NCBI RefSeq assembly: GCF_003334785.1
Contig: NZ_QOWV01000019.1
DNA: 64,000 nucleotides
Source: Escherichia coli
GTDB lineage: Bacteria; Pseudomonadota; Gammaproteobacteria; Enterobacterales; Enterobacteriaceae
Reading direction: 5' to 3' (one strand)
Shown one piece after another: positions 35,578-44,596 of the stretch. The notes under the pieces were generated by a model. It was not told the DNA's origin, did not search any database, and was given only the letters and a program-made list of their open reading frames with translations. Every line of letters begins with the position of its first letter. Position 1 is the stretch's first letter. The translations under genes and the position numbers were made by a program.

Positions 35578-35783
35578 TAACACCGTTACTTCTGAACCCG
35601 GTTTCGACCGGGTTTCTTATTTCACCATATTAGTTACAACATCCTATATGCCTTTATCATTAACAGGTGCCACATGCAGCGCCTGCTAATGTTGTAAGCT
35701 TGTAGGTAATTTGTAAGTAGCGTCTTGAGAATGTGATCGTAATCACGTTTAATAGGGCGACTTTTCCACGCCTGAAGATAACC

Positions 35784-37516: not shown

Positions 37517-37807
37517 TCACGGCATCAAACCATTGAACAGACGTTTTTTACGCGGCCCGGTCATTAAAGATTCCAGTTTCGCGACACAGGTTTTGTAGTG
37601 GGGCGTGGTTTTATGGAACGCCACTGCGTCTTCATCTTTATAGGCTTCGTAGATATAAAAGCGCGAATTCACTTCCGGGTCCTGTAAGACATCGAAGCGC
37701 AAATTGCCTTCTTCCTGTACAGAGCCCAGGTGGTTCTGGCGAAAAACTTCGATAAACTCGTCAACCTTGTCTTCATGAACGTTAATTTCAACCAGTGTGA
37801 CGTGCAT
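37517..37807 (-). CDS. lsrG: (4S)-4-hydroxy-5-phosphonooxypentane-2,3-dione isomerase LsrG, 96 aa
   Basis: ORF track. Confidence 0.9.
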
Positions 37808-37830
37808 AATTCTTCTCCTTAGATCCGCAG

Positions 37831-38706
37831 TTACTGTTTTTCACTCAGATAGAGTTCATATGCCCGATCAGCCGTTTCGTTATGGTGAACCACCGCCTGT
37901 ACGGCTTTCATCATCGCCACCGGATGGTCAGACTGGAAAATATTACGCCCCATATCCACACCAGAAGCGCCCTGATCGATAGCCTGCCAGCACATTTCCA
38001 GCGCCTCGCGCTCCGGTAATTTTTTACCGCCAGCAATAACAATGGGTACCGGACATCCGGCAACAATCCGTTCAAAACCTTTTTCGACATAATAGGTTTT
38101 GATAATTTGCGCCCCCATTTCAGCGGCGATTCGAGTCGCGAGCGAGAAATAACGCTGATCGCGCACCATATCTTTGCCCACGCCAGTCACGGCCATGGTC
38201 GGCATTCCCACTTTCATTCCGGCATCAACCAGCTGAATAATATTTTTGATCGACTGATGTTCATATTCGCTGCCGATATAAACCTGCGCCGCCACCGCGC
38301 AACTGTTCAGGCGCACGGCGTCATCCATCGATAACGCCACGGCTTCATTACTTAATTCCGCCAGAATAGAGTTCGCACCTGACGCCCGCAGTACCACCGG
38401 CCTATTGGTCGCAGGGGGAACTACGCTGCGCAAAATGCCGCGCGTACACATTAATACATCGGCATGTTCAAACAGCGGGGCGATATTTATATCAATGCGT
38501 TCAAGTCCGGTAGTCGGTCCCTGAAAATAACCATGGTCAAAAGCCAGCATCACGGTTTTACCCGTTTTCGGATTAAATATCCGCGATAAGCGTGACTGCA
38601 TTCCCCAATCCAGCGCACCGCAACCTTTCAGGGTAAAAGGGATATTTTTTTGCGGTTGATCGGTACGAAAATCTTTACCATCTTTAATATCGTCTAAATC
38701 TGCCAT
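37831..38706 (-). CDS. lsrF: LsrF thiolase (class I aldolase fold), 291 aa
   Basis: ORF track. Confidence 0.9.
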
Positions 38707-38732
38707 AACTTACTCCGGTTAAGTAATGCACA

Positions 38733-39755
38733 TCAGAAATCGTATTTGCCGATATTCTCTTTGTTGAATATCACGCGCTCCGGTAACAGTACGATGCCAT
38801 TACCATCCGCTTCGTAGTCATAGCCCTGAACGCTGTTTGGCGAGACTTCAACCTGACCTACGCCCTTGATATCCAGCTTGTCGCCCGTTTTCATTGATCC
38901 TTTTTTCAATAATGCATCCGCGACATACACTGAAATTTTGCCTTGCTGAACCACATCCCACAGGCCAAATTCTTTCACCGTGCCGCGCTCTACATACGGG
39001 CGCATCACATTTGGCGTACTGAATCCGACAATCGCTACTTTGTCATTTTTCAAGTTTTCTGCGGCTTGTGCGGCAGCGGGCAGGGCGTTGGCATCGGGGG
39101 CGATAATGGCGTCGAGATCGCTATACGCTTTTAATATTCCTTCTGCGGTTTGTAACGATTTAGTGGCATCGTTATAGCCAAACTGCGTAGTGACAATTTC
39201 CCAGCCTGGATGCTCTTTGGCGATTTTCGCTTTCGCTTCTTTCACCCACTGGTTTTGGTCCGTAACGGTGGGGCTTGAGTAGAAAAACGCGACTTTGGCT
39301 TTGTCTTTATTCACCTGACGCGCCGCCATATCCACCAACATACCTCCTAACTGGGCGGGCGTTCCCTGATTAATGTAGTAAGAGCGGCACTCCGGTTTAG
39401 TATCAGAGTCCCAGGTCAGCACTCTCACACCACGTTGCATGGCGCGTTTCAGTGCCGGACACAAGCCATCAGGCGAAACCGCAGAAACGATAATGGCGTT
39501 ATAACCTTGATTGACGAAGTTATTAATCAACTGTACCTGACCAGAAACACTGGGTTCTGTCGGCCCGTCGTAGGTCACATCAACGCCCAGCTCTTTACCC
39601 GCTTGTTGTGCGCCGTTGCCACCGCTGGTAAAAAATCCCACGCCAACCAGTTTGGGAATAAATGCAATACGCTCTGCGGCCTGCACATTCATAGAGATTG
39701 CGGCAATGCCAAGAGCACTAAGTAAGGCGATTTTCTTAAAGCGATGAAGTGTCAT
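38733..39755 (-). CDS. lsrB: Autoinducer-2 periplasmic binding protein LsrB, 340 aa
   Basis: ORF track; signal peptide. Confidence 0.9.
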
Positions 39756-39766
39756 GAAGATATCCT

Positions 39767-40759
39767 TTATGGCAATGGGTTATTGGCCCGACGCGCCAGC
39801 CACTCTTTAATTTGCTGGCGATGCAGGCTAACGGAACGACCTACGACAACGACGATAAGTAGCGCACCGGAAAGGGCGCTGGACACCTGATTTGGCACTC
39901 CTGCCATTTGCAAACCTTGTTGCAAATATCCCACTAATAAAACCGCAATGGCGGTGCCGATAATGGAACCGGAACCACCATAAATATTGGCCCCGCCAAG
40001 CACCACGGCGGTGATGGCGGGCATCAGAAACGACGCACCGAGATCGGAACGTGCTGAACCAAAATACGATACCAGCAGCACAGCGGCGACCGCAGACGCC
40101 AGCCCCGTCATGGCATAGAGCGCACATAAGGTACGGTTAACTGGAATCGCGCTATAAAGCGCCACGCGCGGGCTTTGCCCAATCAAAAACACATTACGTC
40201 CGGCATGGGTTTTATGCAGCCAGAGCCAGAAAACGAGGAGACATATCAGGAAGATAATCAGCGGAACGGGGAGTCCCAGCACATCCAGGTTAGCGAAATC
40301 TGTAAACGCCATCGGGAATCCACCAATACCTTCGTACCCCGTCGCTCCGGCCATACCGGAAAGCAGCAGAGCGCTTCCGGCAAACAGATACAGCGTGCCA
40401 AGCGTAATCACCAGCGGGTTAACTTTGGTATAGATAATTAATCCGGCGTTGATCAGCCCGCACAATGCGCCGAGCAGTAAGGTCAGGAGTATCGCCAGCG
40501 GCATCGGCACACCACTTTGAAACAGTACGCCCAATGCAATGGCGCAGAGGCCGATGGTCGAACCAAACGAAATATCGATCCCGCCACTGACAATCACCAT
40601 CGTTAGCGGTAGGGCGACAATGCCAATGCAGATAAAGTCACTGGTGCTGAACAGCAACATATTGAGATCTAACATTCGCGGGTTAATTGCACCAAATGCG
40701 ACAATCTCAATAACGAGCAGTGCGGCAAGAGCCAGTTCCCAACCGTAGCGAATACGCAT
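39767..40759 (-). CDS. lsrD: AI-2 ABC transporter permease LsrD, 330 aa
   Basis: ORF track. Confidence 0.9.
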
Positions 40760-41787
40760 TATGCGGCCTCCCGTTTTTTACCTGACGAAGCGGGTTTAAC
40801 GGATGGCGGTGGCGTCATAAAGCGGGCATATTTTTGCCGCCGTAGATTACGTTCCAGCGCACAACGCAGGCGTCCATCAAACACCAGCACCGCCAGCAGA
40901 ACCAGACCCGCGATAAAATCATTCCACCATGCCGGAATGCGCAACAGCACCAGTACGCTATCGATCTGCGTCAGGAACCATGCGCCGAGTACCGCACCAA
41001 TGATCGCACCGGAACCACCGAGCAAACTAATGCCGCCCAGCACGCAGGCTGCAATTGCTTTCATCTCCAGCCCGGTACCGGTCTGGTTGGGGATAAAACC
41101 AATCTGCGAAGCAAACACAATTCCCGCCAGTGCCGCCATGCAGCCGTTCAACGAAAATGCCACAATGCGAATGGCTTCAGTACGAACGCCCAGTTGACGA
41201 GCGCCCTGTAAATTATCGCCCGTGGCATAAAAACTGCGTCCAAACGCCGTCTTTGCCAGCAGCCAGGCCATAAATGCCACCAGAATTATCGTCAACCAAC
41301 CAATTGCTGAAACGCCAAGCAGCAGCGGGGCGGAGAGCTGTTTCAGTTCGGCGGGTAACCCTTCAATCCATTTGCCGCCAGTCCACAGCAACATGATGCC
41401 TCTGTACAACCCTAACGTGCCAAGGGTGGCAACAATGGCAGGGATCTTTAGCCACGCGACCAGGACACCGTTGAAAAATCCCGCGAGCAAACCAAGCAGT
41501 AAAGTCGCGACACAAGCAACAGGTAGTGAATATCCTGCGTTCAGTAACATCCCCAACAGCACCGCGCACATTCCGGTAATCGAACCCACTGAAACATCAA
41601 TATTGCGCGTAAGCATTACCAGCGTCGCGCCCATTGCCAGCAGGATCAGGATTTGCGCGCTGCTATAAACCATGGTCAGCGTTTGCACACTTAAATACTG
41701 GAGGTCGAGAAAACCGGGTAATACAAACAGCAGCACCACCGCCAGCAGTGCCGTGATTTCACGGTTGTTCTGAATAAACTTCAGCAT
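40759..41787 (-). CDS. lsrC: AI-2 ABC transporter permease LsrC, 342 aa
   Basis: ORF track; stop overlaps lsrD start. Confidence 0.9.
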
Positions 41788-43316
41788 GACGCCTCCTGAC
41801 GCTGACTATCGCCGAAGGCAACGCGCATAATAGTCTCGACATTAATATCGCGCTCGGTCAGTGCAGAGTGGGTAATTTCGCCCTGATGCATCACATACAC
41901 ACGATCTGCCATCAGTTCGATCTCTTCCAGGTCGGAGGAGATAAGCAGCACAGCCACATTTTGTGCGGCGATGCTGCGCAACAGCTGGTAGATATCATTA
42001 CGGGCCGAGACATCCACGCCGCGCGTCGGCTCATCGACAATCAATACTTGCGGCGAAGCTTCCAGGCATTTGGCAATGAGGATTTTTTGCTGGTTGCCAC
42101 CGGATAATGTCCGTGCAGCTTGTTCCGGTTGGTTGAATTTAATATTCAGCGCCCGACGATAACGTTCCAGGGTGGCATTATCTTTCGCGGTTTTCGCCCA
42201 GAATCCACGAAGGTTATGAGTAAGGGCGCAGACGTTCCAGGCCAGCGAAGCATCGAGATTCAGTCCGGATGACTGGCGATCTTCCGGCAGATAAACCAGA
42301 CCGCGCAGTAAACGTTCTCCAGTGGATAATTTATTGATCTCTTTACCATTCAGCATAATGCGTCCGCCACGCAAAGTACGCAGACCATAGAGCGTCTCGG
42401 CCAGTTCTGTGCGTCCGGCCCCCACCAGCCCAGCCAGGCCCAGAATTTCTCCGGCATTGAGCGTCAGGCTGACATTCCTGAAACCTTCGCCGGTCAGATT
42501 TTCCAGTGTCAGCACCGGCGTTCCGGCGGCATGTTGTGGGCGGTTACCAGGTAACTCCAGCCATAATTTTTGGCTGGCAGAGAGCGATTTTTCCCGTACC
42601 GCTGGGGTGATGGCCTGAATAATGTCGTCGGTAGACAGTTCGCTGGTTTTGCCGCTTAAGGCGATGGTTCCGTCGCGCATCACGCTAATTCGATCGGCAA
42701 TCTGGCGAATTTCCGGCAGCTTATGCGAGATAAAAACAATACCCACGCCAGTAGCAAGCAGCTCTTGCAAGCGACTAAACAAGCGTTCGGTTTCCGCAGG
42801 GGTAAGCGAGGCGGTAGGTTCATCGAGGATCAGAATCCGCGAGTCGCGCATCAGCCCGCGGAGGATTTCCACCATTTGGCGATCGGCGACATCCAGCGAT
42901 CCTGCCAGACTATGCAGATCAAACTGGCAGCCCAGCGCCGCCAGCAAGTTCTTCATTTTCTGCATGGAGAGCTGTTTTTTTGCCAGCCCAAACAGGATGT
43001 TTTCTTTTATCGACAGGCTTGGGAAAAGCAGCGGTTCCTGGGGAACGAGATAAATACCCAGCTGATGAGCATGAACTGGCGTTAATCTGACGTAGTTGTT
43101 GCCCTCAATCTCCAGCGTACCGCTATCAGCAGGGGTAATACCGGCAATAATCTTCATTAACGTCGATTTACCGGCACCATTGCCGCCGAGCAGGGCGTGG
43201 ACCTCCCCCTGATGCAACGTAAAATCGATGCCTTTCAGGACATTGACCCCTGAATACTGTTTATAAACCGAGCGGGCGCAAAGTAGCGGTAACGCGCGGG
43301 TATCACTCGTTTGCAT
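41781..43316 (-). CDS. lsrA: AI-2 ABC transporter ATPase LsrA (two ABC domains), 511 aa
   Basis: ORF track; Walker [10 protein letters not shown]; 7-nt overlap with lsrC. Confidence 0.9.
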
Positions 43317-43480
43317 ATTTCCCCCGTTCAGTTTTGCAGGTGAGTTTTGAACAAATGTATTTCTGCTTTTAATTTGTTCATAACCTTAGGTGGACATTGC
43401 ACATATTTCCGACGAATAGATCACAATTTATGCTATTTTGATTTTCACGGTTGCGTTTGTTCATGCTCGTAGAGTCAAAC

Positions 43481-43496
43481 TGTGGTTGCCATCACA
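43481..43496. promoter_or_regulatory. CRP-site-like palindrome TGTGG-N6-TCACA in the lsrA-lsrR divergent promoter region
   Basis: Sequence TGTGGttgccaTCACA matches the TGTGA-N6-TCACA CRP consensus at 9 of 10 half-site positions. Confidence 0.6.
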
Positions 43497-43564
43497 GATA
43501 TAAATGAGCAAGAACTGAACAATTGCATTAAAGATTTAAATATGTTCAAAGTGAAGAATGAATT

Positions 43565-44518
43565 ATGACAATCAACGATTCGGCAATTTCAGAACAGGGA
43601 ATGTGTGAAGAAGAACAGGTCGCGCGGATCGCGTGGTTTTACTATCACGACGGGCTGACCCAGAGCGAGATCAGCGATCGTCTCGGCCTGACACGTTTGA
43701 AAGTGTCGCGATTGCTGGAGAAAGGGCATCAGTCCGGCATTATTCGCGTACAGATTAATTCTCGCTTTGAAGGCTGTCTGGAATATGAAACTCAATTACG
43801 TCGTCAGTTTTCGCTGCAACATGTCCGGGTGATCCCTGGGCTTGCGGATGCTGATGTCGGTGGGCGACTGGGGATAGGCGCGGCGCATATGTTGATGAGT
43901 TTACTTCAACCACAACAGATGCTGGCGATTGGTTTTGGCGAGGCAACCATGAATACGCTGCAACGCTTAAGTGGTTTTATTTCGTCACAGCAAATTCGCC
44001 TGGTCACGCTCTCCGGTGGCGTCGGTTCTTATATGACGGGAATCGGGCAGCTTAACGCGGCGTGCAGTGTGAATATTATTCCGGCTCCGTTGCGGGCATC
44101 CTCCGCTGACATTGCCCGTACGCTAAAAAATGAAAATTGCGTCAAAGATGTTCTGTTAGCCGCGCAAGCAGCGGATGTGGCGATTGTCGGCATTGGTGCT
44201 GTGAGTCAACAGGACGATGCGACAATCATTCGCTCCGGTTATATCAGCCAGGGCGAACAGTTAATGATTGGCCGAAAAGGGGCGGTTGGCGACATTTTAG
44301 GCTACTTTTTTGATGCAAAAGGTGACGTTGTCACGAATATCAAAATACATAACGAACTGATTGGCTTACCTTTAAGCGCGCTGAAGACCATACCCGTCCG
44401 GGTTGGCGTGGCAGGGGGAGAAAATAAAGCCGAAGCAATTGCCGCTGCAATGAAAGGCGGTTATATCAACGCACTGGTTACCGATCAGGACACAGCAGCG
44501 GCGATTTTACGTAGTTAA
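43565..44518 (+). CDS. lsrR: Repressor LsrR (SorC family), 317 aa
   Basis: ORF track. Confidence 0.9.
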
Positions 44519-44596
44519 ATTTGCATGACCTTATTACCGGGAATGATGGAGAACGTATAGAGGAACAGACAGAACGCATAAGCCGAGGATAATCTA

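Follow-up and report, generated by a model that had tools for sequence, protein, structure and literature searches.

The analyzed window is a stretch of 64,000 nucleotides from Escherichia coli (contig NZ_QOWV01000019.1), which carries two divergent operons of the autoinducer-2 (AI-2) system. The lsrACDBFG operon (37517..43316, minus strand) encodes the AI-2 ABC importer and phospho-AI-2 processing enzymes and consists of lsrA (41781-43316), lsrC (40759-41787), lsrD (39767-40759), lsrB (38733-39755), lsrF (37831-38706) and lsrG (37517-37807). The lsrRK operon (43565..46189, plus strand) encodes the repressor LsrR (lsrR, 43565-44518) and the AI-2 kinase LsrK (lsrK, 44597-46189). The products of all eight lsr genes exceed the curated cut-offs of NCBIfam equivalogs and the RefSeq annotation agrees, which bears out the original prediction of a complete locus. 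Overlapping stop and start codons had also been proposed for two junctions of the importer operon. At the lsrD/lsrC junction one base is indeed common to both codons (TAATG). The frames of lsrC and lsrA have 7 nt in common (ATGCTGA), without a base shared between the start codon and the stop codon. The tam gene adjoins lsrG, just downstream. Downstream of lsrK, an open reading frame of 1,806 amino acids was found at 46720-52140. Its counterpart in K-12 is annotated as yneO, a frameshifted pseudogene of an autotransporter (ECSE_1600 family).

The two operons are separated by an intergenic region of 248 bp (43317-43564), with the ATG of lsrA at 43316 (minus strand) and the ATG of lsrR at 43565 (plus strand). 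Its G+C content is 34%, compared to 47% for the window, and it is 100% identical to the region of E. coli K-12 MG1655 (window position w corresponds to NC_000913.3 position 1644806 - w). The 248-bp region was found in 4,179 of 5,426 complete E. coli genomes. It is absent from the other 1,247, and three plasmid-borne copies were observed.

A CRP-like palindrome had been predicted between lsrA and lsrR, and TGTGGTTGCCATCACA was located exactly at 43481-43496. Its core, TGTGG-TTGCCA-TCACA, matches the CRP core TGTGA-N6-TCACA at nine of ten positions with the correct spacer of 6 bp, and lies within the 22-mer AACTGTGGTTGCCATCACAGAT at 43478..43499. This is the strong cAMP-CRP site of the region, with its core at 1601310-1601325 of NC_000913.3. 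The palindrome does not lie in the middle of the region as proposed: its centre at 43488.5 is on the lsrR side of the midpoint at a distance of 48 bp, with 76.5 bp to the lsrR ATG and 172.5 bp to the lsrA ATG. In the whole 64-kb window, six matches to the CRP core with at most one mismatch were observed, compared to 2.06 expected, and none of 100 shuffled sequences reached six.

For scoring, a CRP weight matrix was built from 15 classical sites (lac, araBAD, galE, malT, malE, malK, tnaA, two of deoP2, crp, cyaA, ompA, two of cdd, and mglB). Each site was checked against MG1655 (NC_000913.3), where all 15 were found with zero mismatches. The symmetrised matrix gives back the textbook consensus AAATGTGATCTAGATCACATTT. 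With this matrix the 22-mer at 43478-43499 scores 14.65 bits and ranks fourth among 63,979 window positions. In leave-one-out scoring, nine of the 15 classical sites fall below this value; the 15 scores span 4.8-18.8 bits, and their median is about 12.7. The probability that a shuffled 248-bp region reaches 14.65 bits is 0.0046 with mononucleotide shuffling and 0.0092 with a first-order Markov model. FIMO with the CollecTF CRP motif, in a published analysis, gave the strong site a score of 16.9 and p = 8.7e-7 (bioRxiv 10.64898/2026.06.09.730415, Table S4), so the site passed the matrix scan suggested by the original prediction twice. The reported match (...TCTGTGATGGCAACCACAGTT...) contains TGTGATGGCAACCACA, the strong site in reverse complement (10.64898/2026.06.09.730415). 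The E. coli genomes in that table show exactly two FIMO CRP matches in the lsrA-lsrR region, and a search of the table for Salmonella, Klebsiella and Yersinia gave nothing usable. A full-text literature search with the site sequence gave no relevant match.

Three matches in the window score higher than the lsr site. They are located upstream of ydeA (27851-27872, 18.5 bits), ydeN (61983-62004, 16.9 bits) and yneE (35729-35750, 16.0 bits). Two further matches are a second one upstream of ydeN (62197-62218, 12.6 bits) and one upstream of ydfZ (15675-15696, 12.0 bits). By genomic SELEX with purified CRP, ydeA, ydeN, yneE and ydfZ were reported as new CRP targets, and lsrA was recovered among the known ones (Shimada et al., 2011). 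The presence of all four new targets among the matches validates the matrix externally; a small, genome-verified matrix thus picks up five independently reported SELEX targets (ydeA, ydeN, yneE, lsrA and ydfZ).

The second-best matrix match in the intergenic region reaches 4.8 bits. It is a weak CRP box on the minus strand (TGTGATCTATTCGTCG, 43407..43428, core 43425..43410, centre 43417.5) and most likely the box described as CRPI. Its core corresponds to 1601381-1601396 of NC_000913.3. Its FIMO match (...AATTGTGATCTATTCGTCGG...) has a score of 10.5 and p = 3.8e-5 (10.64898/2026.06.09.730415, Table S4). The published order of elements is p-lsrR box, CRPII, CRPI and p-lsrA box (NAR 2016, PMC5137460). 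Counted from the start codon of lsrA, the p-lsrR box was placed at -237 to -197, which maps to 43513-43553, and a TAATGCA stretch at -214 to -208 (PMC5137460). This stretch maps exactly to 43524-43530, so that the published coordinates and those of the window agree. CRPI was described as "very close" to TGTGCAAT (PMC5137460), which is located at 43403..43396 of the minus strand. The only CRP-like sequence between CRPI and the p-lsrR box is the strong site, which is therefore, judged from box order and the absence of another candidate, very probably the published CRPII box. Compared with the published E. coli boxes, organism, sequence and place between the p-lsrR box and CRPI are the same, and no difference was found as far as the published box order and FIMO match go. 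The CRPI and CRPII boxes reportedly trace to Wang et al. in 2005 and Xue et al. in 2009, and the former are said, by papers citing them, to have observed a gel shift for CRP at the lsr region. Further papers also place cAMP-CRP sites between the two lsr promoters.

Conservation was analyzed in a scan with one genome per species, which gave 26 lsrR loci. The upstream regions of 19 of these, from nine genera, were aligned (Escherichia, Citrobacter, Kluyvera, an Enterobacteriaceae MAG, Superficieibacter, Izhakiella, Serratia, Edwardsiella and Mangrovibacter). Over these 19 sequences, identity is 98% for the ten bases of the CRP half-sites, 46% for the 6-bp spacer and 68% for the remaining region. 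Among the 232 possible windows of 5+6+5 bases the CRP core is the most conserved one, also if only one sequence per lineage is used. In all aligned taxa, named here as Escherichia, Citrobacter, Kluyvera, Superficieibacter, Izhakiella, Serratia, Mangrovibacter and Edwardsiella, the best matrix match is centred 75.5-78.5 bp upstream of the lsrR ATG. The weak box is located 69-71 bp beyond the strong site across the aligned taxa, and the two boxes are conserved jointly with their spacing. In the weak box the TGTGATC half alone is conserved, with GATCAC at 43419-43424 invariant in the 19 sequences. The other conserved blocks of the region are the two LsrR operators, GTTCA at 43459-43463 and TGTGG-N6-TCACAG. 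The G at 43485, where the CRP consensus has TGTGA instead of TGTGG, is invariant in 19 of 19 sequences despite weakening the CRP match.

The lsrR loci of Buttiauxella (L019-L025) show 64% protein identity, and in them the site at about -76 is missing. The best CRP-like match there (TTTTGCCGTGCGCTTCACATTT, 9-11 bits) lies about 57 bp from the assumed lsrR start, which indicates that the control region is differently arranged.

The two LsrR operators flank the CRP sites. The operator on the lsrA side (p-lsrA box, 43348..43380) is a near-palindrome, TGAACAAATGT...ATTTGTTCA, detected as a member of a 33-nt repeat family and as an inverted repeat, with both arms invariant across genera. The operator on the lsrR side (p-lsrR box, 43516..43548) has the sequence TGAACAATTGCATTAAAGATTTAAATATGTTCA, likewise with invariant arms, and includes the published motifs AACAAT and AAGATTTAA. 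Repeat analysis and conservation also point to an extra LsrR-like half-site, TTTGTTCA, at 43456..43463, which may serve as an operator element. Over 9 nt it repeats exactly an arm of the p-lsrA box, at a distance of 83 bp. Separated from the CRP core by 17 bp, it is located outside both published LsrR boxes and about eight helical turns from the TGTTCA arms of each box. Its GTTCA is invariant or nearly so over the 19 sequences and nine genera, and the half-site is conserved as strongly as the published operators. The CRP site is thereby flanked by inverted half-sites of the LsrR type, with TTTGTTCA at 17 bp on one side and TGAACAAT (43516-43523) at 19 bp on the other. A description of this third half-site was not found in the lsr promoter literature examined.

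For lsrR, the only mapped transcription start found is located at 43558 (plus strand), is based on three reads and gives a leader of 7 nt. It corresponds to position 1599272 of NC_000913.2, with the upstream sequence GCAAGAACTG...GTGAAGAA (Kim et al., 2012, supplementary TSS table). The same supplement holds no Klebsiella lsr transcription start. Relative to this start, which rests on three reads, the centre of the strong site is at -69.5. Sequence and conservation suggest TTGCAT (43523-43528) as candidate -35 and CAAAGT (43547-43552) as candidate -10 element on the plus strand. This candidate core promoter (TTGCAT-18-CAAAGT) lies almost wholly beneath the LsrR operator at 43516-43548. CRP activates from centres such as -41.5, -61.5 and about -71.5. 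Class I CRP sites are centred at -61.5 in lac and at -70.5 in malT, and the position found here departs from the canonical class I positions by 1-2 bp. Like lac and malT, lsrR has a single strong 22-bp site upstream of a weak core promoter. It differs from them in that its start has three reads, and a class II geometry may apply as an alternative, with an lsrR start near 43530 and AACAAT as -10 element.

On the lsrA side, an experimental transcription start was not found in the literature searched. The putative -10 element is TAAGGT (43388..43383, minus strand), whose T, A and final T do not vary among the 19 sequences. Judged from this element, transcription of lsrA would begin at about 43376, within the LsrR operator (43348-43380) and close to its edge. 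The weak box CRPI would then be centred at -41.5, a predicted class II position, and the strong site would lie at about -112. TGCAAT (43401..43396) was considered as native lsrA -10 element and rejected, being unconserved outside Escherichia, unlike TAnnnT at 43388..43383. A scan of 43250-43650 with the sigma-70 consensus detected no promoter, as is expected for promoters that depend on an activator.

The palindrome is in all likelihood a high-affinity cAMP-CRP operator of the divergent lsrACDBFG/lsrRK control region of E. coli K-12. Motif, matrix score, conservation and fixed position are the basis of this reading. The dependence of lsr expression on CRP and the binding of CRP to the region have been shown in the literature. 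Deletion of crp abolishes both the activity of Plsr-gfp and its repression by sugars, complementation restores both, and for lsr expression this deletion is epistatic to that of lsrR (10.64898/2026.06.09.730415). In a CRP ChIP-exo supplement, which covers a subset of promoters, lsr is absent.

The original prediction also assigned the site to cAMP-CRP control of AI-2 uptake. Control by CRP holds, given the score, the conservation, the crp genetics and the SELEX data, but the strong site is located on the lsrR side. Since the box nearest to the uptake promoter is the much weaker one at 43410-43425, the strong site may act directly on lsrRK, and its effect on lsrACDBFG may be indirect or cooperative. 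The strong site would be at about -112 from the predicted lsrA start, and its spacing of 69-71 bp to CRPI corresponds to a non-integral number of helical turns, so that direct action on the uptake operon is putative.

Which promoter the strong site contacts, and with it the class I and class II geometry, we infer from these positions. In the most economical model the strong site would drive lsrRK, the weak site lsrACDBFG, and LsrR would block both. When preferred sugars are absent, cAMP would rise and a CRP dimer would occupy 43478-43499, bend the DNA and recruit RNA polymerase. At -69.5 the strong site would drive lsrRK, which fits class I activation as at malT. The weak half-site centred at 43417.5, 71 bp away, would drive lsrACDBFG in the class II mode, possibly with help from the strong site. 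LsrR on its two 33-bp operators would block both core promoters until phospho-AI-2 frees it. With the core promoters overlapped by the LsrR operators, either operon would be expressed only if CRP is active and LsrR is released by phospho-AI-2. The malK-malE and araC-araBAD systems likewise have divergent promoters with CRP sites between them and a local specific regulator, and LsrR (SorC/DeoR family), like their regulators, controls the response to an inducer derived from the substrate. The lsr region differs from both in that the inducer is a phosphorylated quorum-sensing signal and the operators flank the CRP sites symmetrically.

The alternative that deserves most weight accepts the strong site as real and lets it serve the lsrRK promoter only, with catabolite control of lsrACDBFG coming from weak CRPI alone. 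We regard this as possible, with a somewhat less than even chance. The strong site is much closer to the ATG of lsrR than to that of lsrA (76.5 versus 172.5 bp) and at -69.5 from the mapped lsrR start, CRPI has its TGTGATC half conserved at the inferred -41.5 of lsrA, and the inter-box spacing of 69-71 bp is off helical phase. However, CRPI reaches just 4.8 bits, yet lsrA expression is strongly CRP-dependent, weak class II sites often need the help of an upstream site, and boxes and spacing are conserved jointly. If the strong site does serve lsrRK only, its link to AI-2 uptake would be indirect. It appears unlikely that the CRP site is part of a conserved CRP-LsrR nucleoprotein complex instead of a stand-alone activator site. 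If so, the CRP bend could aid or hinder tetrameric LsrR in bridging half-sites, catabolite and quorum signals would be coupled through the DNA architecture, and the invariant TGTGG in place of TGTGA could tune the coupling of CRP and LsrR.

That the palindrome is bound by another regulator (FNR, another protein of the CRP/FNR family, or LsrR) or forms a DNA or RNA hairpin is very improbable. Its palindromic sequence would fit such a role, and the invariant non-consensus G at 43485 hints at an additional constraint. However, the GTG...CAC core is the signature of CRP and unlike the FNR consensus TTGAT-N4-ATCAA. The TGAACA...TGTTCA arms of an LsrR operator, about 21 bp apart, were searched for in the palindrome and are absent, which speaks against binding of LsrR. 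As to a hairpin, its stability is no better than that of shuffled sequences (z = -1.4 and -0.6), an Rfam search for an RNA element at the palindrome gave no match, the half-sites never vary and so offer no covariation in support, and the palindrome is located upstream of both inferred starts. A functionless match that arose by chance in an AT-rich intergenic region is barely credible. The low G+C content (34%, window 47%) favours matches to A/T-rich motifs and about two matches with at most one mismatch are expected per 64 kb, but P is 0.005-0.009 for the region and the literature backs a function. Above all, invariant half-sites, a freely varying spacer and a fixed position over nine genera are the signature of a protein-binding site, and this conservation effectively refutes chance.

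The strong site is real, functional and already known. As CRP control of lsr was established by 2005 and taken up again in 2026, nothing new is added to it here. Biologically, the site is the entry point of catabolite repression into the AI-2 quorum-sensing circuit, by which E. coli imports and destroys the shared AI-2 signal only without good sugars. The value of the analysis is that of a positive control, in which a true regulatory site was recognised from raw sequence.

Two published promoter-up mutations are located next to the weak box, at 43396-43403 of the minus strand. The changes from TGTGCAAT to TGTACAAT and from TGTGCAAT to TGTGTAAT were credited to a putative CytR site (PMC5137460). 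In both, the hexamer TGCAAT comes closer to TATAAT, the -10 consensus, as TACAAT and TGTAAT, respectively. From these hexamers, a created or improved -10 element would be a simpler reading of the mutations than a putative CytR site.
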